NCBI RefSeq assembly: GCF_022483985.1
Contig: NZ_JAKVME010000003.1
Span: 9,442-73,441 of the forward strand
Source of the DNA: Acetobacter sp.
GTDB taxonomy: Bacteria; Pseudomonadota; Alphaproteobacteria; Acetobacterales; Acetobacteraceae
Direction: 5' to 3'
DNA length: 64,000 nt
Positions 11,601 through 51,879 of this stretch are shown here, in pieces. Positions within the stretch are counted from its first letter, which is position 1; every line of letters begins with the position of its first letter. Both the position numbers and the translations under genes were made by a program. Below the pieces are notes generated by a model. It saw only the letters and a list, made by a program, of their open reading frames with translations, made no database searches and was not told where the DNA came from.

Positions 11601-12001
11601 CCGCCAATGGTGAGTATGACACGGGCGACATCGTTTCGGTCGGGACAGATGGTCATGTCACCATCGTCGGACGAGCTTCACGTATTGCCAAACCGGGTGG
11701 TGAGATGGTGTCTCTTGCCGCTGTTGAAGATCTTGCCATGCGGGCCTGGCCGGAGGCGCTGTCAGTGGCGGTCTCTATTCCCGATCCGCGCAAGGGAGAA
11801 CGGATCATCCTTTTGACCGAACAGTCCGACGCCGGACGGTCAGCCTTTGTAAACGTGGCGAGGGAGAGCGGCGCCGCGGATATCATGATTCCGGCGGAAA
11901 TCCGGATCGTCCGGAAACTTCCTCTTCTTGGTTCGGGGAAACCTGACTTTGTCGCCGCGCAGGCTCTGGTGACCATGCCGGAAGCTGCAATACTCCAATG
12001 A
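8618..12001 (+). CDS. aas: fusion protein: MFS lysophospholipid transporter (LplT-like) + PlsC-type acyltransferase + acyl-ACP synthetase (Aas-like)
   Basis: The N-terminal ~400 aa are a multi-TM MFS domain. The middle has the NHVSWLDA (HxxxxD) and FPEGRIT acyltransferase motifs. The C-terminus has the AMP-binding motifs FTSGSSGTPKGV, GYGVTE and TGD. Confidence 0.85.
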   Translation: MTASLLTQRRFLPLFISLFASSLGDTLLRNALAALVLWTVSNGAPWIVAFAAAAFVLPAAFLSGLGGELADRMDKSRLIRILKLIEIPIAFLAAAGLMTENVPLVLGALAAFGVVASLFAPVKYGILPDHIEAERLPVANALVEGAVFAAILIGSVVGTVLTGKIGATEAGVCIVGLACLSWLSARTIPASPAAAPELRVQWNILTSGLTLLRELRADRRSWYAALVAAWFWIMGVTMLSLLSPVTRDVLKLTPTWNAVFLALFAVGIATGSALAAFLCGGRAILLPVSFGASLSGLAMVALGFFLLHPESLPFVIVPVCFFVAALGGGLIAVPTQAAIQTWANPQHRARVVAGMNMLAAIGMTIASLLLSFTQRIDGESAAHGSEIMPFFVIGVITLLLVPVFARTLTRNQVGELLWCLFRVAYRVEVQGEEHYPLSGEKAVITPNHVSWLDAALIVAIAPCKPTFAIDLNISRLWWVRTLLRFVPTVAVESGNPFGIRTMAQVVEDGAALVIFPEGRITVTGSLMGIQSGAASIADRADAPVVAMRIQGAERSSFSRLTRAQTPKALFPKIRVTLFPPRKLAVADDLFGRARRHALTASLRDMMEEAVYLTTPSDGTILQAAGRAARTYGMKRVAIEDPISGAMTWRKLLTASEVLGEALSGRLDPAHPVGLLLPTSNATAVCLFGLWSRGFTPALLNATAGAAGLRAALLSAGITTIVTSRAFVEKARLGAVLEALDPMPDILFLEDVRKSIGLAQKLRGALRARFAPAKAHVRREAHDPAVVLFTSGSSGTPKGVVLTHRNILANIAQVTGRIGFSPADRVLCTLPLFHAFGLTGSFLLPLLSGIPTFLYPSPLHYAVIPKIAYFWNATVLFGTSTFLRGYARKAAPTDFRSVRLVVAGAERVQQSVRELWMEQFGLRIFEGYGVTECSPVVALNTPDSSRSGTVGRLVPGMTAMLETVDGMPDAGRLILSGPNVMAGYLLTSQPGVLQPPANGEYDTGDIVSVGTDGHVTIVGRASRIAKPGGEMVSLAAVEDLAMRAWPEALSVAVSIPDPRKGERIILLTEQSDAGRSAFVNVARESGAADIMIPAEIRIVRKLPLLGSGKPDFVAAQALVTMPEAAILQ

Positions 12002-12802
12002 ACACGGCATGCACAAAACGATTTACATGAGCCCGATCAAGTAACTTGAGAAAAACGCCATTCAGGCTGAATGAAGCGCACAATATCTGATTCACTTCCC
12101 TGAACGGTATGTTGAGCCTGCCGTTTATCCAGAAAACTCCTGATTTGCGACAAGAGTCCGAAGTAATCTGGGCAGAATGTGTATCTTGTCAGTTTTATGA
12201 ATTGATAGGATTTCAAAGAAAGAATCAGAAGTTTCTTTGAAAATTTCAGCAATTGAAACGATATCGACATCATGGGGCCGATGTCGTTTTCAGTCTCGGC
12301 CCTTCCCGGAATATCTGGAACTGCCTTATGAGCATGCTGTTTCAGATGGTCCATAAGCCACGCGATTACGAAACTTCTGTTTCGTTCACTCTCGTCTCTA
12401 CAGAATTATAAGCCTTCGTCGAAAAGACCAGAGGTCCACACCGGTACCGTCCTGTCAACTCTGAGATGGATATTACTCGGGTCAGAGGAACAGGATCAAA
12501 AAAAACGGACCATCAAGCATTTTTTGCAAAACAGTTCGACCATTCCATGTGTCTACAAAATAAAACACATCCTAAATGAAGCGACCTTTCACTGACCTTA
12601 AAACGTCATTAAAAATCGATTGAGTATTGTTAAAAATAGTCCCTAAAAGGCGCCAAGGACGACTTGGAGAAATGATCACTCAAACAGATTGAATGCATGT
12701 ATTTACAGTTTTATTGCATTTTTTTGAATGATTTATTTCCGTGACTCCTGTCGATTCAACAAGCAGCGATGCTTTACCCGGACTTGAGGTTCTTCTTCCA
12801 TC

Positions 12803-15169
12803 ATGACGATCAACCTATCAAAGCGGAATTTCCTGCGCTCTTCGCTCGGCTCGGCTGCTGCCATGGCGACCCTTTCCACCTTCCCGCCTGCCATCCGTCG
12901 TGCGCTCGCCATTGATGCGCACAACAGAACAGGTACCATTCAAGACGTGAAGCACGTCGTTATGCTGATGCTGGAAAACCGATCCTTCGACAGTTACTTC
13001 GGCACGTTCAAAGGTGTGCGCGGGTACGGTGACCGTTTCCCCATCCCCACATCCAACGGCGCCAACATCTTTTATCAGAACTATACGAAGAGCAGCGTCA
13101 CCAGCACACTGATTCCGTACCACCTTGACGAGACAAAAGGTAACGCCCTGCGTGCCGGCAGTACGCCGCATACATGGTCTGACGCTCAGGCGGCGTGGGA
13201 TAATGGCCGCATGAGTTCCTGGCCGACGGCCAAGACACCGCTGTCGATGGGTTATTACGAGACATCGGAAGTGCCTTTCCATCGTGCGCTCGCCGACGCC
13301 TTCACACTCTGCGATTCGTATCACTGCGGTATGCACACAGGGACAATCGCAAATCGTCTGTTCTACTGGACGGGCACCAACGGTCCGAACGGCGTCAGCC
13401 CCACGGATGGCAGCCGTGTCAATGTTGCTGCGCTGAACAACCAGTTCAACGGCGGTAATGACATCGGTGCATCGACAACGGGCTGGACCTGGACCACCTA
13501 TGCAGACCGTCTGGAATCAGCCGGTGTCAGCTGGAAGGTTTACCAGAGCCTGATCGACAATTTCGGCTGCAACGAGATGATGGGTTTCCGTCACTGGCGC
13601 GCCGCCATCGAAAAAATGCCGGAGGAAAGACGCCCTCTGTATGTCGCTTCCGAAGATATCAAGCAGGATGTGACAGCCGCCGGTCCGTTCTACGACGCCA
13701 GCATTGACGATGCGATCAGCCCGCTCGCCAAGGGCTTTGGCAATACCATGCCATACGGCTTTCTTGAGACGTTCCGTGAGGATATCCAGAGCAACACACT
13801 ACCTGAAGTGTCATGGATCATTCCGCCGTCAGCCTATAGCGAGCATCCGTCTCCTTCCAGCCCGACACAGGGTGGCTGGTATATTCAGGAAGTGCTCGAC
13901 GCCCTCACATCCAATCCGGAAGTCTGGAGCAAGACCGTTCTGCTCGTGAACTACGATGAGAATGACGGCTTCTTTGATCACCTGCCCCCTCCGTCAGCTC
14001 CTTCTCATAATACCGACGGCACGCTCGCCGGCGGTAGCACGCTCAGTGATGAATCCATGGCCGTGGAGTATCACAACTATACGCCCGCCACATCCAGCCA
14101 GCCTGCGATCGACGGTCGTCCCTACGGACCCGGTCCACGTGTTGCTCTGTGGGCGATCTCTCCTTGGAGCCGCGGCGGTTTTGTCAACTCACAGGTCTTT
14201 GACCATACTTCGACACTGATGTTCCTTGAAGCGAGGTTCGGTGTAATCGAGCCTCAGATCAGCGACTATCGTCGTGCAATCTGTGGTGATCTGACCTCAT
14301 GCTTTGACTTCGTGAACCCGAACAGACGCACAATCCCGACGCTGTCCGGCCGCAGCACCAAGGATGATGCCGACAGTCTGGCTGTCGCCCAGAAGGCTGA
14401 AGCGGCTATTGCTGTCCCTGCCGCCACGACGACCTCCACATTGCCGAAACAGGCGACGGGTTCCCGTCCATCACGCGCCCTTCCTTACGAGCTGCACGTC
14501 TCGTCACATGTTGACGTAAGCGGAGGCACGGTCACACTTCGCTTCACCAACACAAGCTGTGACGGCGCCGGTGCGGTTTTCCACGTCTATGACCGCAATC
14601 ATCTTGATCTGGTGCCGCGACGTTATGTGGTGGAAGCACAGAAAGCTCTCAACGGTGTCTGGACGCCCACGGCGGACGACAAGGGGAACTACAACCTCTG
14701 GCTGATCGGCCCTAACGGTTTCCATCGTGAGTTCACTGGCAATATCACTGAACTGGGCAAAACCAGTCACCCAGAGGTCGAAGTTGCCTATAAAACCCGC
14801 GGCAGAGCCGAAATCCTTGTGAAACTCCACAATCACGGTCATCATGCCTGTTCTTTTCAGGTAGAATCAGAAGCCTACAGGGTCGATGGTCCAAATGGCG
14901 TACGGGTTGCACCGGGTGGCTCCAGCGAACTGCGGTGGCCGGTTGAAGAGAACGGCAACTGGTATGACTTCACGATCACAAGCAGTGCGTCCGCATCCTT
15001 CAAGCGTCGCATTGCCGGTCGTATCGAAACCGGAGAGGACTCCATCTCCGATCCTGCCATGGGAGGAGGTCACGCAGGCCATCGTCCACAGCCACCTCAT
15101 CACCACCATGAAGATATGTGGCCTGATTTCAGGGAAGAAGACCCCATGATGGGCCGCCACAGGTTCTGA
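12803..15169 (+). CDS. phosphocholine-specific (non-haemolytic) phospholipase C, Tat-exported
   Basis: Twin-arginine-type signal SKRNFLRSSLGSAAAMA..ALA. Phosphoesterase motifs MLENRSFDSYFG and YDENDGFFDH. Duplicated C-terminal DUF756-like region. Confidence 0.85.
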   Translation: MTINLSKRNFLRSSLGSAAAMATLSTFPPAIRRALAIDAHNRTGTIQDVKHVVMLMLENRSFDSYFGTFKGVRGYGDRFPIPTSNGANIFYQNYTKSSVTSTLIPYHLDETKGNALRAGSTPHTWSDAQAAWDNGRMSSWPTAKTPLSMGYYETSEVPFHRALADAFTLCDSYHCGMHTGTIANRLFYWTGTNGPNGVSPTDGSRVNVAALNNQFNGGNDIGASTTGWTWTTYADRLESAGVSWKVYQSLIDNFGCNEMMGFRHWRAAIEKMPEERRPLYVASEDIKQDVTAAGPFYDASIDDAISPLAKGFGNTMPYGFLETFREDIQSNTLPEVSWIIPPSAYSEHPSPSSPTQGGWYIQEVLDALTSNPEVWSKTVLLVNYDENDGFFDHLPPPSAPSHNTDGTLAGGSTLSDESMAVEYHNYTPATSSQPAIDGRPYGPGPRVALWAISPWSRGGFVNSQVFDHTSTLMFLEARFGVIEPQISDYRRAICGDLTSCFDFVNPNRRTIPTLSGRSTKDDADSLAVAQKAEAAIAVPAATTTSTLPKQATGSRPSRALPYELHVSSHVDVSGGTVTLRFTNTSCDGAGAVFHVYDRNHLDLVPRRYVVEAQKALNGVWTPTADDKGNYNLWLIGPNGFHREFTGNITELGKTSHPEVEVAYKTRGRAEILVKLHNHGHHACSFQVESEAYRVDGPNGVRVAPGGSSELRWPVEENGNWYDFTITSSASASFKRRIAGRIETGEDSISDPAMGGGHAGHRPQPPHHHHEDMWPDFREEDPMMGRHRF

Positions 15170-15181
15170 TTGCCGTATCCT

Positions 15182-15207
15182 GATGAAGGAGCTCTGCTGC
15201 CTTCATC
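15182..15207 (+). terminator. possible terminator hairpin after the phospholipase C gene
   Basis: gatgaagg (15182-15189) pairs with ccttcatc (15200-15207). The following tract (ggtaatttta) is only weakly T-rich. Confidence 0.4.
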
Positions 15208-15844
15208 GGTAATTTTAAGACTGGTCATGATACAGAGGGCGGCATCGATCCTGTTGGACGATGCCGCTTTTCATTTCAATCCCGGCAAAACTTCTTTCAG
15301 GTGGTGTATTGTACCACATAAATCTCGCACTTGCTGTTGCGCTGGCTCTACATTTTATCTGCATTTTGATGTGATGTTGAACTTCTCCTGCAACGCAAAT
15401 TCAGAAGAAAATCATCATATTATTCCTATAAAAATCACTTCTAATAGAAATCTACACATCCCGAAACAGGAGAGCAGTTCCCGCTCCAGGAACGCCCTGG
15501 AATTGAAGTAAGAGCCAAAAATAGAAAATAAATTAATTGAAAATGCATAACAAACTCTTGTTTTTTAAAAAAGTCAGTCCACCATCACGACTGTACATGT
15601 GTACCGCAGGCATAGCGTAAACGGCACGCCTGAACTATCCCGCCCTACCGTTTGCTCGCACCTTCGATCAGCACGGTGCGAGCACAATTGCGCCACTTCA
15701 GCCAGAAAAACATTGATCAGCATGATTTCATCCATCGTCACGTTATTCACAATTTTAGTGTTATTCTTTTCCATAACAAAAAATTGTGCATTTAATGGAT
15801 TAATTAGAGCATCCATATCCGTCATTTATTTCAAAAATTTTTAA

Positions 15845-17233
15845 TTACTTCTTTAAAGAACAAGAGCGGAGCCTGTTAAGATGAACAAACCTTACAGTTT
15901 GCAGGCAGGCGGAGCAAAACACACCGATACAGATACCAGCCCACACACCCAGCACAGGCTGAGGAGTTAGACGTGCGAGTATCATCGCAAACACAAATCC
16001 CACAATCCAGTAGCTTGCAACGGCCATAAGCATTGGAATTTTCATATCCAACTGCCCTCTGAGCGCACCGGAGGAAGCGGCTTGGAGAGCATCGAAGACC
16101 ACAATCCCGCACACGGCAATAAACATACCATATAAACTGCCGCCAAAGCTGGCAGCAAGCTCACCTGTATCCACAATACTGACCTTGTAGATGGCATCAT
16201 GAAACAGCATGATAAGTGCAACCTCTGCAAACGCGACAAGCAGGATGAATGTCACTGCGACACGATGAACCAGACGGATGCGCGCAGCCTCACCTTTGCC
16301 ATGGAAATACGCAACGCGCACCGATACAGCCTGGCTCATAGCCAGAGAGGGCATAAAAGTCAGAAGTTCTATGGATTGGCAGAGTTGATGCACGCTCATC
16401 TGAGTCACGCCTGATGCCCCGACAAACATTGCCAGCATAGTATTAGCGCTCATTTCAGAGGCCACACCAAGCCCGACAGGCCATCCGGCTGACAAAATCG
16501 CCAAACAGTCCGCGAAGACGATATGTTTATTAGAGTCAGACAACGTTCTTTTAAGAACAGACAGAATATCGAGAGAAAGAAATGAAATAATAGCCACCAC
16601 GGTCCAGGAAAGAGAGAATATCACTCCCATCAGCATCAGAAGATTCTGCTCTGTTACACTCCGGAAAAACATCACTACCACTGCGGCGCACACGCCGTAA
16701 AAAAAAACACCACACCCTACCGCTTTGAGAATGGAAGCAGCTTTTCTCGATGCCGAAGCATAGGACCTCATAACTGAAAAAAAAACCATGCCTGGCGTGG
16801 CAAAAACCGCACTACTCATATACAGTAGCGCACCCTGTCCCATCGTCGCCTCAAACACATAAGCACGACAGAAAAGAATAATCAGGATCAGCAGAATCAA
16901 TAGAAAAACAGACAGAATCAGTGCTATAATGCATGCGCAACCCACAAAACGCTCTGCAACACGATCCCCCCTCCCCTGAGCCTGTCCGAAGAGAGACTGA
17001 AAAGAAGAAATTGCTGACTGAACTATGACAACGCCAGTCTGAATCAATATATTGCAGATACCGCCAGACGCCAGAGCTTCAACTCCAATTCCACCCAAGG
17101 CAAGATTGGAGCACACTGTGATGCTCACTTGCATCAACTGAGCCAGAGAAAGCGGGAAAAATATTCTCGAACTCTCTTTCGATTCTTCAAGAATAAAATA
17201 TTTGTTTTTCAAAGATCTTACCGCCGATGCCAT
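15845..17233 (-). CDS. MATE-family efflux transporter
   Basis: 462 aa and about 12 TM. The layout is MATE-like (FPLSLAQLMQ.. N-terminus, GALRGQLDMKIP in the second half). Last gene of the AT-rich one-strand block. Confidence 0.7.
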   Translation of the reverse strand: MASAVRSLKNKYFILEESKESSRIFFPLSLAQLMQVSITVCSNLALGGIGVEALASGGICNILIQTGVVIVQSAISSFQSLFGQAQGRGDRVAERFVGCACIIALILSVFLLILLILIILFCRAYVFEATMGQGALLYMSSAVFATPGMVFFSVMRSYASASRKAASILKAVGCGVFFYGVCAAVVVMFFRSVTEQNLLMLMGVIFSLSWTVVAIISFLSLDILSVLKRTLSDSNKHIVFADCLAILSAGWPVGLGVASEMSANTMLAMFVGASGVTQMSVHQLCQSIELLTFMPSLAMSQAVSVRVAYFHGKGEAARIRLVHRVAVTFILLVAFAEVALIMLFHDAIYKVSIVDTGELAASFGGSLYGMFIAVCGIVVFDALQAASSGALRGQLDMKIPMLMAVASYWIVGFVFAMILARLTPQPVLGVWAGICIGVFCSACLQTVRFVHLNRLRSCSLKK

Positions 17234-17250
17234 CTATTATCACACATCCA

Positions 17251-17895
17251 TCACGCCCCGTGCCCAATCACGGAAAAAGCCGCCATGACATCCTGAGCGT
17301 TCCTGCGCGCACCAGCCTGTAGATATTCCATAGCAGACAGAGCCGCCTCATGTGCACGATAGCTGGAACCGGCAACACAATCTTCAACAACACGGCAGTA
17401 ATAATCCATCTGGTGCGCATCAACAAAACTGTAATGGACGCAAACGTCTGTAAAGCCCCCGACCATGACAAGCGTCTGAACTCGCAACCCCTTGAGCAGG
17501 ATCTCCATATCCGTGCCAAAAAAAACAGAATAGCGCCTCTTTGTAATCCGGTAATCATCCGCTAACATACCTAATTCTTCCACAGCAAATTCAGTAACTA
17601 AATCACCTTCAAGACAATGAATATTTTCAGAACCATCCAACTCACGACCAAAATCGATCAGATTACTACGATGAGCCTCCTGAACGAAAATGACAGGAAT
17701 ATCTGCTACACGGGCAGCGTCCACCATTTTTCTGGCCCGCGTATAACGCTCTACGGCATCTGACATGAACTCAAGACGAGAGCTCGCAGGACGTGGAGCA
17801 AAGCAGCCTTTTTGAATATCTATGACAACCAGAGCTGGACGACCAACAATCATTGGTTGGGCCGTAATCTGTTTTGCTGCGCTCATGCAATGCAC
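17251..17895 (-). CDS. isochorismatase-family cysteine hydrolase (amidase-like), paralog 1
   Basis: LVVIDIQKG.., KRRYSVFFGTDMEILLK and the GGFTDVCVHYSFVDA catalytic-Cys motif. By eye roughly 60 percent identical to ORF 22353..22988. Confidence 0.8.
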   Translation of the reverse strand: MHCMSAAKQITAQPMIVGRPALVVIDIQKGCFAPRPASSRLEFMSDAVERYTRARKMVDAARVADIPVIFVQEAHRSNLIDFGRELDGSENIHCLEGDLVTEFAVEELGMLADDYRITKRRYSVFFGTDMEILLKGLRVQTLVMVGGFTDVCVHYSFVDAHQMDYYCRVVEDCVAGSSYRAHEAALSAMEYLQAGARRNAQDVMAAFSVIGHGA

Positions 17896-18030
17896 TCCTC
17901 TAAAAAGAATAAGAGTATTTATTCCTCTTTCTCTTTCAATATCAAATGAGACAAATAAACTTGCCTGATATAGTAGATGTATGCCGGACGGTAGTTTACC
18001 GGAGCGAGCTACGCTACGTGAACTCTGTAT

Positions 18031-19311
18031 TCAACCAAGCGTGGGATTTAATCTCTGAGCTTCATCCATGTCCTGTTTGATATGTTTACAAGACAAAATC
18101 AGAAGCACGCCTGCTGGCAGGATGGCCACAAGCATGGAAAGAAATGCCGCTTGCAGAGGGTCTCTCATTCCCATACCTTTGTACAGATCACTCATCACTC
18201 CCACGAGGTAGTTCCCGCCCCCGGCTCCGATCACACTCATGCTGACAAGGATGACCGTAGCCCCCAGAGCCCTCTGGGCGGGTGGCAGAACCTCTTGTGA
18301 AAGGGAAAGCACTGGGGAAAGATACGCCCCAATACCAAAAATGACAAAAGCATAGAAAAGATACGATACAGCCCCTGTAGTCTGAAAAAATGCGAGCATG
18401 GATACATTCACAAGCACACATGCGACGAGAGGAATCAGACCGTAAGCCCGCCTGTCCTTTTTGACAAAATAGTCACAGAGAACACCAGCCATAATCGTAC
18501 CGGATATTCCGCCAATTCCTTCAACAAGGCCACTGATATTACCTGCCTGCTCAACAGTTAGTTCCCGACTGCGGATAAGATACGCCGGACACCAACTCTC
18601 AAATCCGGAACTCGCCATCACAAGCAGGGTATAAGCCATACCGGTCATCCAGTAACTTTTTCGAATCACCAGAAGTTGCAGTCCCTCTGCAAATGAAGTC
18701 TGGGGCACCTGAATATCCACGAGCGCTGGAGAAGTCTCTCGAATAATGAACCAGGCTCCCAGCGCAAGAACAAGACCTGGCGCACCAAGTATAAACAGTG
18801 CATATCGCCAGCCCAACCAAGGAACCAGCATGCCACCAGCACTCAGACCAATCCATATACCCAGAGAAATACCGCTATTATAGACCGAAATGGCACGTGC
18901 ACGGTACCGGTCTGGAAAATAGCGTGAAATGATATAATAACAGACCGGACTGCTGCCCCCTTCAAAAAAAGCGACTGCCAGCCTCGAAAATGCAAAGGAC
19001 CACAGGCCAGATGCTATTCCCCCCATCAGGGTAAACAAGCCCGCGCCCAGAGAGACCACCGCCAGCAGACGACCTGAGGGCACCTTGTTAACCAGATAGG
19101 AAAATAGGAAACCCGAAAGCGAATAGACCAGAGAAAAGAGCGCCCCATTGATCAGCCCGACATGATGATCTGTAATATTCAGATCTTTTTCGATTGGATC
19201 AATGAGAATGGAAATACTGAACCGATCTACCCATTCAAAGCTGAAAATGCACAACATGATCGCAAGGTAAATCAGCATTCTTTGCTTACCGATTTTTTCC
19301 ATGACTCGCAT
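18031..19311 (-). CDS. MFS transporter
   Basis: 426 aa and 12 predicted TM, with MFS loop motifs (RLAVAFFEGGSSP, DRYRARA). Confidence 0.8.
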   Translation of the reverse strand: MRVMEKIGKQRMLIYLAIMLCIFSFEWVDRFSISILIDPIEKDLNITDHHVGLINGALFSLVYSLSGFLFSYLVNKVPSGRLLAVVSLGAGLFTLMGGIASGLWSFAFSRLAVAFFEGGSSPVCYYIISRYFPDRYRARAISVYNSGISLGIWIGLSAGGMLVPWLGWRYALFILGAPGLVLALGAWFIIRETSPALVDIQVPQTSFAEGLQLLVIRKSYWMTGMAYTLLVMASSGFESWCPAYLIRSRELTVEQAGNISGLVEGIGGISGTIMAGVLCDYFVKKDRRAYGLIPLVACVLVNVSMLAFFQTTGAVSYLFYAFVIFGIGAYLSPVLSLSQEVLPPAQRALGATVILVSMSVIGAGGGNYLVGVMSDLYKGMGMRDPLQAAFLSMLVAILPAGVLLILSCKHIKQDMDEAQRLNPTLG

Positions 19312-19346
19312 TCTAGCCTTGTATTAAAAGACTGATCGTCTGTAGA

Positions 19347-20651
19347 TCAATAATTGAACGGAACATGCGGATCTGGCTCCTGTATCGGACCAGGAATATG
19401 GAGTAAGTGACAGTTTGAAACCGGCTTTCTGCCTTCCCGCAATGCGGTCACAAACCTCAGCTCATCGGGGAATGCCGCATTAACCGTTCCGCTGTGCGTC
19501 AGATCCGGATAATAGTGCCATTCCACTTTGTCCTGAGCCGAACACATGGCTGCAACCACGTTATATTGCGGGATAGTTCCTGCTTCCGCATCAGCAAGGC
19601 CTGTCGCTGTAAAAACAGGAGCACTCTGGTAGGCATCCGGCAACATTCTGGCCTGCTGGGCCAGAGTTTCATAATGAGTGATAGCTGGATAGTAGATATC
19701 ATCTGCCTTCATGTGGTGGTTGCGGGCATAGCCCATCAGGTCATGGAGGCAGGCATGAGAAGCCAGAGCTATGATCTCATGTCCCTTCTCCCTGATCAGG
19801 GAAAAGAGACCGGGATAACCCAACCCTTGCAGACTGCCCAGAAAGTAGAGGGTGGAATAGGCGGCATCAACGTCCTCTCCCCCTTGATACGCTCCTTCAG
19901 GAAGCGCCGGAGCATTGTGTCTGTCTCTGATATCAAGCACGAGCCCACTGGCGATCACACCCACAATATGCAGGTCCGGCGCAGCGGAGGGTGCAAGATA
20001 GGCTGCTCCCAGAGCAGCGCCAGAACCTTGGGATTGTCCCGCCAGCACAACACTGTTTGCAAGCTCATGCGGGTAGGCCTTGAGCACAGCACGAACACCA
20101 TCGAGAATGCTGTACCCTTCCGGTCTGTAAAGTAGATACGGGTGCACACCCGGCGTACCCAGCCCCTGATAATCTGTACCAAAGACAGCAAAGCCGTGGT
20201 CAAGCCACTGCTTGAAATACGCCATGTCCCTAGGGGACGAGCCACGCCAGGAAGGCGCACATACATCCGCAACTCCCGTTGTGCCGTGTGCCCACGCTAC
20301 AACGGGCCAGCCACCCGTCGGCGGCTTTCCGGTCGGGACATACAAGACACCCGAAACCGCTGTTGCCTGCCCTTCTCGTAGACCATCGCGGGCAGAATAC
20401 AGCAAACGGTAAGCCTGATACCCGGACTCTGCCACTGGGTACGGTTCCTGTCGCAGGACTATGCCATTCGCCGCGGGCAGAGGTGCATCCCATTTGTAAA
20501 ATGCTGATACACCACCATCACCGGATGGCAGTACCTGTGCCGCCATGACCTGATTATTCCAAAGCGTTGCAGCCACACCTCCGGACACACAGGCTTTCAA
20601 CATACGAGCACTGTGCCATAATGCTCTTTTGATATTTCTTTTCATTTTCAT
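19347..20651 (-). CDS. secreted LIP-family lipase / alpha-beta hydrolase
   Basis: N-terminal signal peptide ending NNQVMAA. AWAHGTTGVADVCAPS and a GQSQG nucleophile elbow, as I recall them for the secretory lipase (LIP) family. Confidence 0.65.
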   Translation of the reverse strand: MKMKRNIKRALWHSARMLKACVSGGVAATLWNNQVMAAQVLPSGDGGVSAFYKWDAPLPAANGIVLRQEPYPVAESGYQAYRLLYSARDGLREGQATAVSGVLYVPTGKPPTGGWPVVAWAHGTTGVADVCAPSWRGSSPRDMAYFKQWLDHGFAVFGTDYQGLGTPGVHPYLLYRPEGYSILDGVRAVLKAYPHELANSVVLAGQSQGSGAALGAAYLAPSAAPDLHIVGVIASGLVLDIRDRHNAPALPEGAYQGGEDVDAAYSTLYFLGSLQGLGYPGLFSLIREKGHEIIALASHACLHDLMGYARNHHMKADDIYYPAITHYETLAQQARMLPDAYQSAPVFTATGLADAEAGTIPQYNVVAAMCSAQDKVEWHYYPDLTHSGTVNAAFPDELRFVTALREGRKPVSNCHLLHIPGPIQEPDPHVPFNY

Positions 20652-20657
20652 CTTGTT

Positions 20658-22325
20658 TTACCACACAGATAGGCCGGAAAGTCGACTGAAAATCCAGTCC
20701 AGTTGAGTCTGTCGGAAATGCGTTCTGACCGAGACATCATGCGCTCCGAACTCCAGCACAGGACCAGAAGATGGCACATAACGCGGCCATGTCGGCGCCA
20801 GCTTCCCGGCATCCGGCGCACCCGTCTGTACAAAACTGACCCAGTACGCCATCATTTGTCTTGAAAGCTGGTGTACTTCTTTTTCACTATCCACTTCCTT
20901 TCCGGTCGATGAGCCCTCCTCTGTTACCTGATACGGCTGTGTGCCCTGATTAGTATAGGCTCTGGTCAGATTTCCAAAAACATAGGGGAGTTCAGAAGCA
21001 TGAGCCGCACCCGCACACCCTTCGGACTGCCAGCCCTGCCCCTTGATCGCGTGATCAAAATTATAAACCCATACGGATAGACCGCTGGTGGACCATGCCT
21101 GAGCCTGAAAGCGGACAGGTTCAGTCTCTATCCGGTCGGTCTGCGCTTCTCGGACAGCCATCTGGAGTGGGCCTGGATATAACCGTCGGAAAACCGGATC
21201 TGTATAGGAAGCAAAGGTAAAAAGGGCCAGCGCATCTGGCCCGTAAACACTAGCATCACAACTGGTACCCCCCACCATAAGGGTAACAGACAGCATTTTC
21301 CCTTGAGCGAGCAGATCCGGCAAAGATGCAGACAGCATCTGACCGTCCACTATCGGCATTGGCGTAGTGCGATCTATATCCTCAGGTGGATCATCCTCTA
21401 CAAGTGCGGACGCAGGCAAGGCACGCAGGGCCGCTGCCTGTTGAGCAGATGTTCCTTCAATCCCATGTCGGTGTGCATATTCAGCCCCTATGGCTTCGGC
21501 AGAACCTGCGCCTGTATTCAGTGGACGCCCAGCCCAACGTGGAAAACCTGACTGTGAAATAGCACGTGCAAATAATCCTTTTGCCGCAGGCATCACAGAC
21601 AGAAAATTGACAGACGCCCCTCCAGCACTCTGACCGACAAGAGTCACCTGAGAGGGATCACCGCCAAAACCTGCGATGTTGTCTTGCACCCAACGTAGGG
21701 CGGCCAACTGGTCCATCAATCCATAATTAGCCTGCCACTCCCCCTGCGACTGCATGGCAGAAAGAGCAGGATGCGCAAAAAAGCCAAGCCGACCGAGACG
21801 ATAGTTAAAACTGACAACAAGAATACCCTGCTGAGCCAGATGAGTACCGTCATACAGTGGTTCAGCCGAAGCACCTCCAATAAAAGCTCCCCCATGAATC
21901 CATACCATGACGGGCAGAAGCCGTGTGCGCTCACCAGAGAAACGGGTAGCGGGCCGCCAAATATTGAGTGTCAGACACGACTCACTTGTAGGAAGACCGC
22001 GGGCCGCCATGCGTTTAATCTGTAAACATGCTGGACCAAAATGCTTGGCGTCAATTTCTATCTTTCGTGCAGATTCCGGCAATAGCAAAGGTTCTGGAGG
22101 ACGCCAGCGCAAGGTGCCGACAGGAGGAACCGCATAAGGAATACCTTTAAAACTTTCTACTCCCATATCTGATACGCCCCTCACCAGACCATAACGGGTC
22201 TGAACCAAGGGTACGCCAGTATCCGCAGTAGCTATCTGGCATGAAAATGCCAGCACAACACCATGCAGAAAAAATCCGGAAAAAATTTTTATTCTTTCTG
22301 GTATTGCTTTTTCCTTAAACCTCAC
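20658..22325 (-). CDS. secreted type-B carboxylesterase (para-nitrobenzyl-esterase-like)
   Basis: Signal peptide ..SCQIATA. VWIHGGAFIGGA oxyanion region and GQSAGGASV nucleophile elbow. 555 aa. Confidence 0.85.
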   Translation of the reverse strand: MRFKEKAIPERIKIFSGFFLHGVVLAFSCQIATADTGVPLVQTRYGLVRGVSDMGVESFKGIPYAVPPVGTLRWRPPEPLLLPESARKIEIDAKHFGPACLQIKRMAARGLPTSESCLTLNIWRPATRFSGERTRLLPVMVWIHGGAFIGGASAEPLYDGTHLAQQGILVVSFNYRLGRLGFFAHPALSAMQSQGEWQANYGLMDQLAALRWVQDNIAGFGGDPSQVTLVGQSAGGASVNFLSVMPAAKGLFARAISQSGFPRWAGRPLNTGAGSAEAIGAEYAHRHGIEGTSAQQAAALRALPASALVEDDPPEDIDRTTPMPIVDGQMLSASLPDLLAQGKMLSVTLMVGGTSCDASVYGPDALALFTFASYTDPVFRRLYPGPLQMAVREAQTDRIETEPVRFQAQAWSTSGLSVWVYNFDHAIKGQGWQSEGCAGAAHASELPYVFGNLTRAYTNQGTQPYQVTEEGSSTGKEVDSEKEVHQLSRQMMAYWVSFVQTGAPDAGKLAPTWPRYVPSSGPVLEFGAHDVSVRTHFRQTQLDWIFSRLSGLSVW

Positions 22326-22352
22326 AATGGCATGCTCCTTGTCTGCTCGTTA

Positions 22353-22988
22353 TTATCCAGCACGCAGTGCCGCATAACGGGCCAGAGCATCAACCGCATA
22401 CGCGCTATCAATATTTGAGCCATGCTGCAGATATTCCATAGCTTCCAGCGCGGCCGTGTGCGCTCTGACACTTGAACCAGCGACGCAATCATGCACCACT
22501 CGACAATGATAATCGTGCTGATGACCATCTACAAACGTGTAGTGAATACACACATCTGTAAAACCCCCAATAAGAATAAGGGTCTCTGCCTTGACCGCCT
22601 TCAAAAGAATTTCAAGCTCCGTACCAAAAAAACATGAATACCGACGTTTCTGGATAACATAATCATCTTTTTTCAGACCTACGATATCAGACGCGATAGG
22701 TGTCCCGGGATTACCTTCCACACAATGCGGCCCCTCACTCCCATCCAGTTCACGACCAAAATCGATCATGGAAGCCCTATGAATTTCCTGAAAGAAAATG
22801 ACAGGAACATCCGCTGCACGCGCTGCATCGATAATTTTACGTGTCCGGGTCATGCGTTCGATCATGTCGGGCATGAGGGGCAGATGAAAATCAGGAGGGG
22901 GAGTCACAAACGATCCCTTCTGGATATCAATAGCCAGAACAACAGGATTTCCCACAATAAAAGGGTTATTTTTCTTCATTTTTACCAC
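22353..22988 (-). CDS. isochorismatase-family cysteine hydrolase (amidase-like), paralog 2
   Basis: LAIDIQKG.., KRRYSCFFGTELEILLK and GGFTDVCIHYTFVDG. Paralog of 17251..17895. Confidence 0.8.
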   Translation of the reverse strand: MVKMKKNNPFIVGNPVVLAIDIQKGSFVTPPPDFHLPLMPDMIERMTRTRKIIDAARAADVPVIFFQEIHRASMIDFGRELDGSEGPHCVEGNPGTPIASDIVGLKKDDYVIQKRRYSCFFGTELEILLKAVKAETLILIGGFTDVCIHYTFVDGHQHDYHCRVVHDCVAGSSVRAHTAALEAMEYLQHGSNIDSAYAVDALARYAALRAG

Positions 22989-23109
22989 AACATTTCTCTT
23001 TCAGGTAGTGCTTTTACACACTCAAAAGGTGCTGCCATCTCAGCCCGTTTCAAAACCACAATGAAACAGCATTTTTTGCATAACAGAGAGTGAGAGCGCC
23101 TTAGAAAAT

Positions 23110-25534
23110 TCAATAAGATGCACTTATTGTTCCAAAAAACTCGCGAACTGCACCACGCTGAAGCGATTGATAATCACCTGACACAGGAAAACCATTTTCA
23201 CCCATCATGGAGACGTATTTCTGGTTAAGCAGATTATAAACTGTAAAATTTACCTTGACATTTTTCAGAACAGATATCTTCCCGAAGTCATAAGAAGCGC
23301 CAGCACTTGTGAACCAGTACGGATGAACAGAAGTATCATTAACAAGAGAATAGTATCTCTTTGAAAAATAGTTAGCTGAAAAATTGGCCGAAAAACCCTG
23401 ATAATGAAAATCCATACCCGTCTTATAAATAATTGAAGGATAAGCAACCATTTTCTTGCCATATAGATCACAGTTGCCATCAAGCGGACAGGCATTAACG
23501 TGTGCACCATATGTCATGTGATTGTAGCTGATGGAATTCATAATCCCCAGCCATTTGAAAGGATAATAATTAAGAGAAGCATCAACTCCGTACATGGAAG
23601 CTTTCCGGCTGTCGATCACGGTTGAAACGGGATTGTTGATGCTTCCGACAGAAGCTGACAGCAGACGATGCGAAATATCCGCATGATACGCCGCAACAGA
23701 TGCCACAATTTTTTTACTGGTATAGCGGTAACCCACAACATAGACCCAATCTTTTTCCGGTCTGAGTTTGGAATGATTCTGCTCAAACAGGTCCTGAGTA
23801 GATACACCCCACGGTGAAGTATAGCTGCCTCTTGCCGCAACACTGTAAGGACGCATTGTTTCAGCCACGTCAAAATACAGTTCATGATGCTTCATAAAAC
23901 GCCAGACAAGATTAACGTTAGGCAGGAATGCTGCCGACGATGTCAAGGTTCCATGGGCAAGCTTGGAAAATCCAGCTTGAGCTCCACCCGATGTTGTCTG
24001 CAACATGGATTTAAATCCATAAGTTAGCTGCAGATTGTCCAAAGGCTTATATACATCCATCAAATGATACTGAAATGTATTTGTATTCCACTGATAATGA
24101 TAAATCGGGTAAAGGAGTCCGTACGTATCATATGGACCTGTGACTGAAACTGGCTTACCCTGTCCAAGGACAGGCTGATTGACAGCATTAAAAGCCGTTT
24201 CCTGTCTGTTGTTTTCAAACCAAACACCAGTTTCAATATGGTGCTTCCTATAATCATACGTAAAACTAGTTGTAAAACCACCGCGCTGCTGCTGAAGGTG
24301 CCATACATCCTCGGCCAATGGCGCACCCGTTGTAGAAGAGTCATACGGATCACCTACAACCGTATGTGTATCATCCTTATGACCATACAGAAGACCATGC
24401 CATTTCAGGCGATCGGTAATATCAATATCCAGATGCAAGCCGGTCAGATAGTCAACCGTAGCCTGTCCCGCATCATAAAAAGCCGTGCCATAGGTTGTTG
24501 AAACATTCTGCCACCCTGCAGGAAGCGCTCCTGCAGGAAGCGCTCCTGCAGCTCCGTTTGTCTGCCCCCATAAACCTGCCGCATACGCACCAGCATAATT
24601 GGGATAGAAATTGGCAGTTCTCCAGCCAATTTTATCCAACATTTCCAGAGAATTATCGGAATAGTTCCATACTTCCGCATTTGACCAGTTGAAAAACAAT
24701 GACATTCTTGCGCGTTCACCCAAAGGCTGCACAAGCTTACTGTCAACATTCTGCATAAAATCGGGGCTGGAACTGTTGTATTTTTTTTCATATGCCCGCG
24801 CATAGGAAACAAAGAATTTCGTACCTTCTTTATTTAACCTTCCACTATCCAGACGGACATATGTTCTCTTCATACCGTAACTACCAAACCCTTGAGAAAC
24901 CTTGGCACCAGCAACATCCTCAGGATCCTTTACGGACATTTGCATGGAACCACCAAGATTACTATTAGACGGCAGAGACACCCCCCCCAGCACCAACTGA
25001 AAGTGATACCCGGCCAATGTCATCAGAAATCACGGCATTGTTGATATTCAGACCATTGAGATTAGCATAAGTCTGATCATTCAATGGGATACCATCCAGT
25101 GTCACACCAAGCTGGTTCTGGCTGAAACCTCGGATACGGATACTGGATGACCATCCATCTATTCCAAGCGGATCGGATGAGCTGTAGCTAGTTCCCGGAA
25201 GCTGTCCTAGAGCCTTAAGAATATTCTGTCCCGGCACCTCATTCTGCATGATCCGACGCTCAAGCTTCATATCGCTTCCGGTCTGCATATAACGCTGAGA
25301 ACCAGTAACCTTCAGCTCCTCAGTCTGATGAGAGATGGCTGCATGATGTATTTTTTTGCTCTGATGAACTGCGCGCGGTATAATGCTTTTTTTTACAGGC
25401 GTCTTAGCATCAAGATGAGCCGTTTTTCCCTCAGCCTTCGCAGAAGCGCTCCATGCACACATTGAATATACAAGCAAAAAACTCAATTTCACTAAAAATA
25501 CAGAACTTTGCTTTTCCGAGAATACACCTCTCAC
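23110..25534 (-). pseudogene. TonB-dependent outer-membrane receptor, reading frame broken at a G8 (plus-strand C8) tract
   Basis: ORF 24965..25534 encodes the signal peptide and plug (IRIRGFSQNQLGVTLDGIPLND). ORF 23110..25023 encodes the beta-barrel, ending in aromatic Y. The two frames overlap at cccccccc 24981-24988, and removing one base fuses them (..SVGAGGVSLPSNS..). Confidence 0.85.
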
Positions 25535-25681
25535 TGCGGCTCTCCCTCACTGCCCTCTCTACATACAGTGAAGATTTTGTTTCGGATTAAAAATAACTTA
25601 TGAGGAAATTTTATTTTCCTTTTTTGTAAAGTTGACCACTCAGGAGCCTCTATTTTGAATCTTTTTTGAGCCTCCGGAAAT

Positions 25682-25870
25682 ACTCTAGGGCGTGTTGTCA
25701 GTTAATTCCGATGATGGCGGAAACGAGTTGCACTGCTGCGAGGAATGTTGATTTCAGCTTGTCGTAGCGTGTTGCAATGCCTCTGAACTGCTTCAGCCTG
25801 GCGAAGAAGCGTCCAATGATGTTTCTGTTTTTGTAGAGCTGGAAGCTGATTTTCTGTGGATTGTGTGCTT
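25682..25870 (-). mobile_element. IS5-family (IS427/IS1031-like) element, 3' end only
   Basis: The minus strand translates to ..KNRNIIGRFFARLKQFRGIATRYDKLKSTFLAAVQLVSAIIGIN*, a typical transposase C-terminus. The terminal repeat actctagggcgtgttgtcagtta at 25682 matches the one at 47859. Confidence 0.75.
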
Positions 25871-25886
25871 GTCGTTCTGGTCAGAA

Positions 25887-26185
25887 TTATCCGCGCGGTG
25901 CCAGCGCTTCGATATCCACTGCCTCGCAGCACTGATTCTTGCGGTAAACGAAAGCGAGAAGCGTGCTGACCTGTTTCATAAAAAACCCGAGATTCCGTGC
26001 CAGCCGGATGAAGCTCAGGCTACTACGTTGGCGCGTGTGATATCGGTCATTCGGCGTGTACCGAGCTTTGGTACGATGAACAGATCGACCGAACGGCGAT
26101 ATTCTGCCTGCATCGTGGGTTTAAGATGAACTTCGACGTGACGTTCCATGAAAGTCTTGCCGAACTGTTTGAAGGACTGAAACCC
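25887..26185 (-). pseudogene. two gene scraps: MerR-like fragment (about 25887-26025) and tyrosine-integrase N-terminal fragment (about 26028-26185)
   Basis: Minus-strand translations: LSFIRLARNLGFFMKQVSTLLAF.. (MerR effector-helix-like) and FKQFGKTFMERHVEVHLKPTMQAEYRRSVDLFIVPKLGTRRMTDITRANVVA* (integrase SAM-like N-domain). Confidence 0.5.
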
Positions 26186-26197
26186 AGCCTATCACTA

Positions 26198-47648: not shown

Positions 47649-47858
47649 AAATGGTTTCGCTATAAAAACAGAAATTATATTTTGTTTTTATCGGGGGAAT
47701 TGTAATGGGTGTCGCTCCTTAGTTTATAAAAATCTCTTTGGGAATTTATCTGTTAATGATGAATTGGCCTCGTGGAGCATATGTATGACGTTTGAAAATA
47801 CCAATTTTTCGCCATTTTCCTGTTAACGTAAAAAAACCGTCTCCATACTCATTTCGGG

Positions 47859-48280
47859 ACTCTAGGGCATGTCGTCCGTTAGCATCAGACGCTATGAGGC
47901 TTGTACTTCCATCTGATCTGTGATGTTTTCTCCCTGTTTTCAGGGAGAAAATGAATGCGACGATATGGCCTGAGTGACAGCCAGTGGGAACGGATAAAAG
48001 ATCTTCTCCCGGGTCGCGAAGGTCATGTCGGTGGAACGGCTGCCGATAACCGTCTGTCCGTGGAAGCGGTTCTGTATCGTTACCGTGCCGGCATTCCCTA
48101 GCGTGACCTGCCTGTCCGTTTTGGTGACTGGAAGAACGCCGTCATCCCCAAACGGAATCGCAACAATGTATCAACGTGGTGTGTGACGGACCGATATCAG
48201 ACTTAAATCGCAAATTTGGAAGATCTGGCCTCTGCTCACTCGAAACGAAGTGGTCGTTTTATGGTGGAGGCGTCAGGCAT
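47859..48280 (+). mobile_element. IS5-family (IS427/IS1031-like) element, 5' part, degenerate
   Basis: Terminal repeat actctagggcatgtcgtccgtta at 47859. From 47955: [52 protein letters not shown], with an in-frame stop where W is expected. The sequence decays after about 48135. Confidence 0.7.
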
Positions 48281-49223: not shown

Positions 49224-49310
49224 TTATGCTGCCTTATGACATGGCCTGGATGCCTGCGACAAAGCGGGGTGTGCAGGAGCGCATTCAGTCTGAGGTCTGG
49301 ATGAAACCTG

Positions 49311-49754
49311 AACAGGAAGGCCAAGGACATCGACGTGACCCGCGCCGATGTCGTCGAATTGCACCAAGGGCTGAAAGAGACACCCTATCAGGCCAACCGG
49401 GTGCTGGGCGTGCTGGCGAACATTCCCCGGATCGACGGCAATCCCTATGTGATCACCGGGAAGATGGAGGGCCAGTATCTGACCGACATCCAGAAACCCC
49501 GGCGGCGGCTTCGCACACGGGCCGGGCTGGACACGCTGCGTATCCATGATCTGCGCCATTCCTTCGCCTCGGACGCGCTCCAGCTTGGCGCGGACCTGAC
49601 CATGATCGGGCGGCTGCTGGGCCATACGCAGGTACAGACCACCGCGCGGTATGCCCACCTCAAGACCGATCCCGTCCGCACCACCGCCAACAAGGTGGCG
49701 GATGCCATCGCCAGCGCGCTCGGGCACGTCGCGCTAGAAAACAGGGTCAACTAA
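49311..49754 (+). pseudogene. tyrosine integrase remnant (N-terminus missing, internal deletion)
   Basis: ..DIDVTRADVVELHQGLKETPYQANRVLGVLANI joins directly to ..NPYVITG..LRIHDLRHSFAS..LLGHTQVQTTARYAHL. The catalytic R-H-R-Y C-terminal box is present, but about 130 aa of the core are absent. Confidence 0.75.
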
Positions 49755-51400: not shown

Positions 51401-51879
51401 CATAAGTCGCCCCCTCCCTCTTTCCGGCCTGTCACCTACTACGAAGTAGTCGCGCGCTGATCCTTACGGATTGGAAGAAAAAACAAGACCGCATTAATCA
51501 CCGTTCCACTTGAAGCGCGCTCTGAATAATCGCGACCAACCTTCGCGTAATACGGTCTCGTTTTCCTTGCGGAGTCACCATGATCACCCCCCTCTTTCGT
51601 CCACAATTCGCACCGCAGATTCAATGTGTGATTGATCGCCTTTATTCCGAGACACTCTCGCAAGATCCAGCGATACGCCAATTGGCGCAAGCCAAAGGAC
51701 TGACACATGACGGCCAGCGTGGTTTCTACGAGGCCATGAAAGATGAGATCGTTCATCCGGTTGTTGCGGGGTGCGATGTCGTCGAATTCATCAGTCGGGT
51801 CGAGTGTGAACTCGTTCTCCATCGGCTCTTTCTTTTCGACAGTGCCTTCGCCCAGTTCAGGCTGACGGCGTCGGGCGGA

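Follow-up and report, generated by a model that had tools for sequence, protein, structure and literature searches.

A putative LysR-associated uptake and hydrolysis island of Acetobacter sp. whose cysteine hydrolases have relatives in guanidine-catabolic operons

The DNA analysed here (hereafter, the window) is a stretch of 64,000 nucleotides from Acetobacter sp. (NCBI RefSeq assembly GCF_022483985.1, contig NZ_JAKVME010000003.1, positions 9,442 to 73,441). The system in question is a minus-strand block of seven genes (positions 15,845 to 25,534; table 1) that encodes an interrupted TonB-dependent receptor, two exported serine hydrolases (a type-B carboxylesterase and a LIP-family enzyme), two cytoplasmic isochorismatase-like cysteine hydrolases (CH1 and CH2), an MFS transporter and a MATE-family transporter. 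We read this block as a horizontally transferred, LysR-controlled uptake and hydrolysis island, which would most likely harvest nitrogen from an ester- or amide-linked compound with a small amide core of the ureido or guanidino type, and we give this reading about an even chance. Nitrogen harvesting appears probable because relatives of the two amidases sit in operons for guanidine breakdown. In the present genome, the island is probably switched off or decaying, since its receptor gene is frameshifted and its regulator seems to have been carried 21 kb away by an inversion linked to an insertion sequence (IS).

The seven genes, with their Pfam families and their common strand, were recovered as described in an initial annotation of the block. 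The short gaps it had reported (6 to 135 bp) measure 17, 135, 35, 6, 27 and 121 bp from the MATE gene to the receptor gene, and an IS5-family transposase scrap does abut the receptor end. The greater AT richness also holds: GC content is 44–55% in the block, and GC at third codon positions (GC3) is 41–52%, versus a GC3 of 58–64% in the flanking genes used as reference (phospholipase C, fdhD, mobA, moeA and acyltransferase genes). Its composition marks the block as foreign. Seven is nevertheless an incomplete count, as an eighth gene, encoding a LysR-type regulator, lies apart from the others and had been missed. So had the frameshift, which makes two overlapping open reading frames (ORFs) of what was taken for a single receptor gene, and the composite origin of the block. 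Promoter-like and terminator-like sites are no commoner in the block than in shuffled sequences, and none falls at an internal boundary.

The complete eight-gene order (LysR, receptor, CH1, carboxylesterase, LIP, MFS, CH2, MATE), with an intact receptor, was found in A. senegalensis 108B, A. senegalensis LMG 23690, Acidomonas methanolica DSM 5432 and a lineage represented in several metagenome assemblies. The conservation of gene order on which the initial annotation had made its reading depend is thus seen in at least three other lineages. Compared with the window, these orthologous clusters display 65–88% protein identity and 68–77% DNA identity. The islands of Acidomonas methanolica and A. 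senegalensis share 89% DNA identity along 11 kb that take in neighbouring IS sequence, which indicates a transfer between genera. In A. senegalensis 108B, IS copies are present on both sides of the island and a tRNA gene lies nearby; one end shows two tandem IS5-family copies (locus positions 17145–18772) and then the tRNA gene (19168–19240), a typical insertion setting.

The block is a fusion of two older modules, one made of receptor, CH, esterase, MFS and LysR, which recurs in sphingomonads, Asticcacaulis and Pseudoxanthomonas, and one made of LysR, CH and MATE. In a tree of 92 members of the hydrolase family (quick IQ-TREE search, SH-aLRT support), CH1 and CH2 share a clade (support 92) with receptor-linked hydrolases from sphingomonads and Caulobacter. 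The sister group of CH2 (support 97) is formed by the hydrolases of LysR–CH–MatE units from Devosia pacifica, Ciceribacter and a proteobacterial metagenome-assembled genome (MAG; L028), and CH1 groups with members from Pseudoxanthomonas, Sphingobium, Vibrio and Pseudomonas syringae. The MATE gene pairs with CH2, and the same CH–MatE pair exists in Devosia, Ciceribacter, L028 and P. syringae (in the latter as ABC importer–CH–MatE–M20–OprD–IclR). As Devosia, Ciceribacter and L028 carry two paralogues, one beside an importer and the other beside MatE, such a pair of hydrolases is a recurrent design. Homologues of the other components also accompany the hydrolase: LIP (41–46% identity) stands next to a CH gene in Stakelama, Pseudoxanthomonas, Sphingomonas (SCN 67-18) and Asticcacaulis, a carboxylesterase homologue replacing it in a locus from a Caulobacter MAG; MFS (34–39% identity) in Stakelama, Pseudoxanthomonas, Caulobacter and Sphingomonas; and LysR (35–40% identity) in Stakelama, Sphingomonas SCN 67-18, Pseudoxanthomonas and Asticcacaulis.

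CH1 and CH2, previously judged by eye to be roughly 60% identical, share 61% identity and score 131.7 and 123.3 bits, respectively, against PF00857 (cut-off 27). Their Asp-Lys-Cys triad (D21/K114/C147 in CH1 numbering) is invariant in 33 aligned members, themselves included. Across 81 other family members, 72 columns reach a conservation of at least 90%, and the two enzymes keep 67–71 of them, with CH2 deviating at a single one. Both are probably active, with a chemistry like that of the other members. The nearest folds to an AlphaFold2 model of CH1 (pLDDT 91.9) are maleamate amidase, biuret hydrolase (BiuH), N-carbamoylsarcosine amidase (CSHase), nicotinamidase (PncA) and triuret hydrolase, none of them above 27% identity (Foldseek probability 1.00 and TM 0.7–0.77 for maleamate amidase, BiuH, CSHase and PncA). 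All of these fold neighbours deamidate a small terminal amide or ureido group. Membership of a well-characterised housekeeping subfamily, which the initial annotation had named as an objection to its own proposal, is not what we found: the NCBIfam models for BiuH, RutB and PncA give only 38–60 bits against cut-offs of 174–378 (57–60 against 370 for BiuH), the YcaC-like cut-off is missed as well, and none of the curated NCBIfam models claims the family. The latter is very large, with 5067 matches at 55–69% identity across Alpha- and Gammaproteobacteria, Actinomycetota and Chloroflexota, and a search of plasmids returned only family members annotated as cysteine hydrolases. We also considered CH1 and CH2 as orthologues of the guanylurea hydrolase GuuH and rejected this assignment, as they are 29–31% identical to the GuuH of pMET-2 (the sole GuuH compared), have 30 of the 72 conserved columns in common with it and belong to a different large subfamily.

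The hydrolase family as a whole is genomically associated with guanidine catabolism. This association was established on 84 non-redundant family loci, whose neighbouring genes were called as longest ORFs (a crude procedure in GC-rich loci), clustered and checked through representatives with Pfam, the gene counts coming from tblastn with a 50% coverage filter. About one-third of these loci adjoin guanidine-catabolic genes. Indeed, a DUF1989 pair was detected in 12 of them, allophanate hydrolase in 11, biotin carboxylase in six, and an operon encoding an NMT1-type ABC transporter, an arginase-family protein and a His-rich protein in 10–13; a Guanidine-I riboswitch precedes this operon in all four loci tested. 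DUF1989 is the family to which the carboxyguanidine deiminase CgdAB has been shown to belong (Schneider et al. 2020, cited in PMC9800807). Within the clade holding CH1 and CH2, guanidine-catabolic genes occur at six of the 11 loci from outside the Acetobacteraceae.

Several of these loci unite relatives of the island genes with the guanidine genes in a single operon. In Pseudoxanthomonas, one strand encodes in order a receptor, CH, MFS, GntR, LIP, two DUF1989 proteins and allophanate hydrolase, the stop codon of LIP overlapping the next start. Asticcacaulis has CH–DUF1989–DUF1989–allophanate hydrolase with gaps of at most 10 nt, flanked by receptor, LIP, LysR and MFS genes, and in Devosia and L028 an operon ABC–CH–M20–DUF1989–DUF1989–allophanate hydrolase is divergent from LysR–CH–MatE. 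None of these operons has a carboxylase within the DNA stretch compared; in Stakelama, the module abuts a complete carboxylase/DUF1989/NMT1-ABC operon. The carboxylase-free arrangement would make sense if the hydrolase yielded carboxyguanidine or allophanate, that is, if it performed a deamidation of the guanylurea or biuret type. The dominant marine arrangement is a different one, in which a PotD-type ABC importer and CH are joined by a protein of approximately 250 amino acids without known family; near this core are found a divergent 2-oxoglutarate oxygenase with a small protein without known family, and a protein of the metallo-beta-lactamase fold. In 10–13 loci, this arrangement stands beside the operon for the NMT1-type ABC transporter and the arginase-family and His-rich proteins.

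Some of the related loci have further features of their own. In loci L029, L038, L039 and L045 of marine Alphaproteobacteria (approx. 11.5–17 kb), the riboswitch-led operon lies directly beside the CH operon and encodes an arginase-family protein of 414 amino acids together with a His-rich protein of approximately 170 amino acids without Pfam match; it may correspond to a guanidine-hydrolase-like system with a metallochaperone. Upstream of the ABC and CH genes in L029, L033, L036–L038, L042, L055, L064, L068 and L081, the divergent pair consists of a plant-type 2-oxoglutarate oxygenase (DIOX_N + 2OG-FeII_Oxy) and a protein of 150 amino acids without Pfam match, and recalls, in its arrangement, the methylguanidine hydroxylase/lyase pair MgdH/MgdL (PMC12508155). 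The soil metagenome contig L089 (13171–14984) encodes a family member of 198 amino acids, then a creatinase-like M24 protein (Creatinase_N + Peptidase_M24) and ABC permeases, and is another guanidino-compound context.

In the carboxylesterase (336 bits to PF00135 in Pfam), GQSAGG aligns with the nucleophile motif GESAGG of PnbA and AAHASELPYVFG with the catalytic His segment; the acid of the triad is probably the Asp of GGTSCDAS, placed by eye opposite GTTRDEG of PnbA at an alignment gap. Among solved structures, this enzyme is closest to 8wdm, PnbA and the fumonisin B1 esterase 8s6d. The LIP enzyme scores 58 bits over part of the PF03583 profile, possesses the nucleophile motif GQSQG, and has the LipA esterase of Xanthomonas oryzae (3h2g) as its closest solved relative. 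Both had been described as secreted: the signal is clear on the carboxylesterase (hydrophobic N-terminal segment, residues 14–32), whereas for LIP it is clear in the orthologues, all of which have a signal peptide followed by a conserved GDGGVS.FY, and weaker in the window copy. Apart from these two enzymes, only the receptor, with a clear N-terminal hydrophobic segment, bears an export signal; the cysteine hydrolases have none. A locus of Komagataeibacter medellinensis (9001–16087) combines a LIP homologue (50% identity) and a TonB-dependent receptor, without a cysteine hydrolase, with two inosine-uridine nucleoside hydrolases, an adenine deaminase and a xanthine/uracil permease; the LIP–receptor pairing is therefore not confined to the pathway proposed here.

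As for the transporters, the subfamily closest to the MFS protein is that of the anion:cation symporters for galactonate, phosphoglycerate or aromatic acids (TIGR00893, E = 4e-32, short of the cut-off). Matches to drug-efflux models are much weaker, and the protein is on this basis a probable importer. The other transporter, with nine hydrophobic segments in a crude scan, is assigned to the MATE family by its profile match (PF01554, 84 bits) and is not a recognised NorM (95 and 38 bits against NorM cut-offs of 449 and 950).

Accordingly arranged, the parts would act as follows. The TonB-dependent receptor would take an ester- or amide-linked conjugate into the periplasm, where the exported carboxylesterase and LIP esterase would cut it and free a small acidic or zwitterionic fragment. 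This fragment would be imported by the anion-symporter-like MFS protein, and CH1 and CH2 would strip its terminal amide nitrogen as ammonia in the cytoplasm. Because the island has neither CgdAB nor AtzF, the leftover cation, such as guanidinium, would leave through the MATE protein paired with CH2. The layout logic of the initial annotation, from a receptor in the outer membrane through exported serine hydrolases and an MFS importer to cytoplasmic amidohydrolases and a MATE exporter, is thereby retained. As to the substrate class, the comparative context favours a ureido- or guanidino-type amide over a generic diester. Related activities have been described or proposed: guanylurea hydrolases belong to the same superfamily as CH1 and CH2, and Gdx pumps export guanylurea in Aminobacter (PMC9800807); under Guanidine-IV riboswitches, MATE-like MepA proteins have been proposed to export guanidine (PMC12186494); and triuret is broken down by two isochorismatase-like hydrolases working one after the other, as summarised in PMC12625717.

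Several observations weigh against nitrogen harvesting from such a compound. DUF1989, allophanate hydrolase and carboxylase genes are absent from the 64-kb window (tblastn) and from the islands of A. senegalensis, Acidomonas and the metagenomic lineage, and Rfam finds no guanidine riboswitch in the island or the window. No riboswitch of any kind was found by Rfam in the island or in seven related loci; apart from tRNAs, the scans matched only a fluoride riboswitch in another part of the window. The guanidine link is carried by relatives at 57–69% identity, the family stands at only approximately 30% identity to the GuuH of pMET-2, and the window receptor has no close homologue among the receptors of the sphingomonad loci. 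Besides, the substrate class of the hydrolase family is deduced from gene context, and the association with guanidine genes could partly reflect a general clustering of nitrogen-scavenging genes. The MFS protein could also be an exporter. Finally, the proposed route leaves unexplained which bond an esterase would cut in a guanidino or ureido compound, and why two nearly equivalent hydrolases would be needed.

The same genes could alternatively serve to use an ordinary ester as a carbon source, be it an ester of plant or insect origin, a xenobiotic diester or a lipid-like compound. The cysteine hydrolases would then handle an amide side group outside guanidine or urea chemistry, and the MATE protein would act as generic efflux. 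The nearest solved relatives of the two exported esterases (PnbA, the fumonisin esterase and Xanthomonas LipA) do act on carboxylic esters, the MFS protein does resemble organic-acid symporters, and the Acetobacteraceae islands have no guanidine-pathway genes. We nevertheless hold this unlikely: it does not explain why operons joining the hydrolase family, LIP and MFS homologues, and CgdAB-like and allophanate hydrolase genes exist in several lineages, and none of the five islands contains genes for later carbon-catabolic steps (dehydrogenases, CoA ligases, oxygenases).

Two transporter families capable of efflux, in an island that is mobile and IS-flanked, might also suggest a detoxification or resistance cassette, with esterases and amidases inactivating a natural product or xenobiotic that is a toxic ester or amide, and the MFS and MATE proteins pumping out this compound or its products. 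Some isochorismatase-like hydrolases indeed inactivate antibiotics, an example being the streptothricin hydrolase SttH. However, a TonB-dependent receptor as first gene argues for deliberate uptake, the MFS protein scores best with importer subfamilies and weakly with drug exporters, and relatives of the hydrolases belong to assimilation operons that also encode ABC importers and allophanate hydrolase, so that a protective role seems improbable. Neither detoxification nor the use of an ordinary ester accounts for the operon-level link with guanidine genes or for the missing carbon-catabolic genes.

The initial annotation had further proposed an ester-backbone xenosiderophore, the receptor taking up a ferric complex that the esterases would linearize and whose pieces the hydrolases and exporters would recycle. 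Although the combination of TonB-dependent receptor and esterases resembles the logic of Fes and IroD/IroE, this substrate is not supported by our results, and we regard such piracy as very improbable. Of the regulators and Fur boxes that were to be looked for in related clusters, the regulator is indeed present, but it is of the LysR type in all clusters and not an iron regulator, and no Fur-like box was detected upstream (best match 11/19, with 64% of shuffles as good). The esterases belong to PF00135 and PF03583, there is no esterase of the Fes/IroD/IroE type, no FecIR system and no reductase, the hydrolases are not EntB-like, and the neighbours of the hydrolase family are nitrogen-catabolic genes.

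We then turn to the state of the copy present in this genome. Its receptor gene is read as a plug ORF (24965–25534) and a barrel ORF (23110–25023), which overlap in different frames at a run of eight G (G8); the plug and the 22-strand barrel of a TonB-dependent receptor are thus not encoded in one polypeptide. An identical G8 was retrieved in contigs of three metagenome runs (depth 16–112), which may be the source sample of the window itself. At this site, the four orthologues display GCTGGCGGACTTGCC, which is non-homopolymeric and one base shorter, and they encode continuous proteins of 803–814 amino acids. The G8 tract is accordingly lineage-specific, and nothing supports its being an evolved switch. 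A short in-frame tandem duplication, GALPAGALPAG (24516–24551), is also visible in the translation of the barrel ORF.

The displaced LysR gene is full length, its product being 82% identical in amino acids to the LysR directly upstream of the A. senegalensis receptor and the DNA 71–74% identical in nucleotides to three clusters. In all four orthologous clusters, this gene lies directly upstream of the receptor gene and in the same direction; in the window, it is intact but 21 kb from the operon and inverted relative to it. The approximately 100 nt upstream of the receptor, starting with ACTTTAC, are conserved in all five clusters and thus kept in the window, where homology to the LysR-bearing clusters stops at 25632, approximately 100 nt upstream of the receptor start. 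The IS piece next to the receptor is 77% identical in nucleotides to the IS beside the A. senegalensis island, and the piece near LysR is 85% identical in amino acids to the first 61 residues of the transposase of that IS. The two pieces are in opposite orientation, the C-terminal end being on the minus strand and the N-terminal end on the plus strand, and an integrase is split likewise into an N-terminal scrap on the minus strand and a catalytic C-terminal scrap on the plus strand.

Because the displaced LysR, the split IS and the split integrase all fit one history, we infer from their orientation that an IS first landed in the interval from the LysR stop codon to the receptor promoter, and that a segment of approximately 22 kb (approx. 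25.9–48.1 kb) would then have inverted, with one breakpoint inside the IS; the two IS pieces would mark the breakpoints. Reverting this inversion on paper restores the arrangement of the other clusters, with the LysR stop codon beside the IS and the promoter, and leaves the integrase halves on the same strand and in the right order. No terminal inverted repeats were identified at the two IS scraps, and the 275 bp from the LysR stop codon to the IS end (47649–47923) match none of the compared loci. Short-read contigs support, piecewise, the promoter–IS end, the side from the IS scrap to fdhD, and LysR up to 47896; within the repeated IS sequence they are interrupted, and the path across 25754–25825 is without independent confirmation. 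The apparently inverted segment carries formate dehydrogenase and molybdenum cofactor genes, a urea/amide ABC transporter, a sensor kinase–regulator pair and a formamidase.

These lesions raise the alternative that the block is, in this genome, a decaying remnant without present function, whose pathway logic is a relic of the donor. The receptor is frameshifted in all three metagenome runs, the inversion separates LysR from the operon, and IS and integrase scraps lie at the edges; yet none of the six other genes is truncated or disrupted, and their catalytic motifs are kept. We consider a mere remnant quite unlikely, and it bears on the state of this copy and is compatible with nitrogen harvesting as the function of the island. 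Loss of function, which we think probable, is itself unproven: LysR-type regulators act in trans and this one is intact, the operator region has been retained, and a homopolymer can regain its earlier length by slippage.

Table 1. Features of the island and of its displaced parts (positions in the window).
Feature	Positions	Strand	Basis or remark
MATE-family transporter, 462 aa	15845–17233	-	PF01554, E 1e-23; last gene of block
CH2, isochorismatase-like cysteine hydrolase, 214 aa, cytoplasmic	17251–17895	-	PF00857, E 1.5e-35
MFS transporter, 426 aa	18031–19311	-	PF07690 (MFS_1), E 7e-40
LIP-family serine hydrolase, 434 aa, exported	19347–20651	-	PF03583, E 1e-15
Type-B carboxylesterase, 555 aa, exported	20658–22325	-	PF00135 (COesterase), E 5e-100
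CH1, isochorismatase-like cysteine hydrolase, 211 aa, cytoplasmic	22353–22988	-	PF00857, E 4e-38
TonB-dependent receptor gene, first of operon, interrupted	23110–25534	-	PF07715 and PF00593 on separate ORFs
G8 homopolymer with frameshift	24981–24988	-	sequence read directly
Conserved putative promoter/operator region upstream of receptor gene	25535–25632	-	approx. 100 nt common to all five clusters
C-terminal end piece of IS5-family (IS1031-like) element	25681–25880 (transposase scrap 25698–25880)	-	PF13586
Integrase N-terminal SAM-like scrap	26015–26188	-	upstream of receptor gene
LysR-type regulator of island, 302 aa	46740–47648	+	PF00126 and PF03466; homology to A. senegalensis LysR
N-terminal end piece of same IS type	47924–48138	+	PF13340; transposase homology
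Integrase catalytic C-terminal scrap	49305–49754	+	other part of split integrase

Around these features, the flank on the MATE side (15170–15844) has no Pfam match and no similarity to any compared locus. A gene for an N6/N4 DNA methylase (50768–51460, plus strand) stands beside the integrase and IS scraps, in a low-GC patch at 47–51 kb. The sole Rfam match in the window is the fluoride riboswitch RF01734 (6768–6845, plus strand; 45 bits for a gathering score of 34).

The island bears on two questions of guanidine biology: the natural source of free guanidine or carboxyguanidine, and the presence in many genomes of CgdAB-like and allophanate hydrolase genes without an adjoining carboxylase. 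A hydrolase family with thousands of members, found repeatedly in operons with precisely these genes, offers a concrete enzyme target. One could go further and suppose that the CH1/CH2 family is the natural entry enzyme of a carboxylase-free guanidine branch. It would convert a compound of the guanylurea or carbamoylguanidine type directly into carboxyguanidine, which CgdAB and allophanate hydrolase would finish without ATP; the Acetobacteraceae would expel guanidinium via the MATE protein, and the esterases and receptor would mark an esterified natural guanidine precursor. We put this forward tentatively and find it rather doubtful. If the substrate class is correct, the enzymes could serve in the breakdown of guanylurea-type pollutants or of carbamate and ureido compounds. 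In any case, the island is a mobile trait of acetic acid bacteria that has moved between genera, and the window copy appears to illustrate clearly how an island decays by IS-mediated inversion and homopolymer frameshift.

Among known systems, the mineralization of guanylurea and guanidine by Pseudomonas mendocina GU and MET (GuuH, guanidine carboxylase, CgdAB and AtzF; PMC9800807) likewise relies on an isochorismatase-like cysteine hydrolase that deamidates a small nitrogen-rich amide and on dedicated pumps exporting toxic guanidinium-type cations, and the relatives of CH1 and CH2 stand in operons with DUF1989 (CgdAB-like) pairs and allophanate hydrolase. The island differs by its hydrolases, which belong to another large subfamily than GuuH, by the addition of exported esterases, a TonB-dependent receptor, and MFS and MATE transporters, and by the lack of carboxylase, CgdAB and AtzF genes. 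The triuret and biuret pathway (TrtA, TrtB, BiuH and AtzF), as summarised in PMC12625717, also employs two isochorismatase-like paralogues to release nitrogen and ends at allophanate hydrolase. Its enzymes have the same fold (6xix, 6xjm and 6azn are among the structural neighbours of CH1), but identity to the solved BiuH and TrtA structures does not exceed 25%, the BiuH model is far below cut-off, and the island has neither decarboxylase nor AtzF. With the MATE/MepA exporters of Guanidine-IV (mepA) riboswitches (PMC12186494), the island has in common a pump of the MATE family, there proposed to expel guanidine and here predicted to carry a similar cargo; it differs in having no riboswitch, in the island or the relatives scanned, and putative LysR control instead.

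At the level of design, the island resembles the polysaccharide utilization loci of Bacteroidota, as had been remarked in the initial annotation: one locus gathers a TonB-dependent transporter of the outer membrane, hydrolases for the periplasm, an importer for the inner membrane and a regulator of its own. It is not such a locus proper, as neither an ORF nor a Pfam match for a SusD-like partner was found in the block or its orthologues, so that the comparison is only an analogy; it also has no glycoside hydrolases and no hybrid two-component or extracytoplasmic-function (ECF) regulator, and its hosts are Alphaproteobacteria. A second design parallel is the fumonisin degradation cluster of Sphingopyxis sp. 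MTA144, which comprises the type-B carboxylesterase FumD, a TonB-dependent receptor and regulators. In both, a TonB-dependent receptor accompanies an exported type-B carboxylesterase, a combination suited to a large esterified compound, and the FumD structure 8s6d is among the best matches of the window carboxylesterase (E = 3e-62). The likeness is at family level only, since the island has no aminotransferase/dehydrogenase set and adds cysteine hydrolases, a LIP esterase and a MATE transporter. The initial annotation recognized no described pathway in the block, and the literature searched likewise contained none with such a combination of genes, nor the hydrolase subfamily or its tie to guanidine genes. 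The parts are of known families and the design is of a known kind, whereas the combination, and the tie of this hydrolase subfamily to guanidine catabolism, appear to be new.

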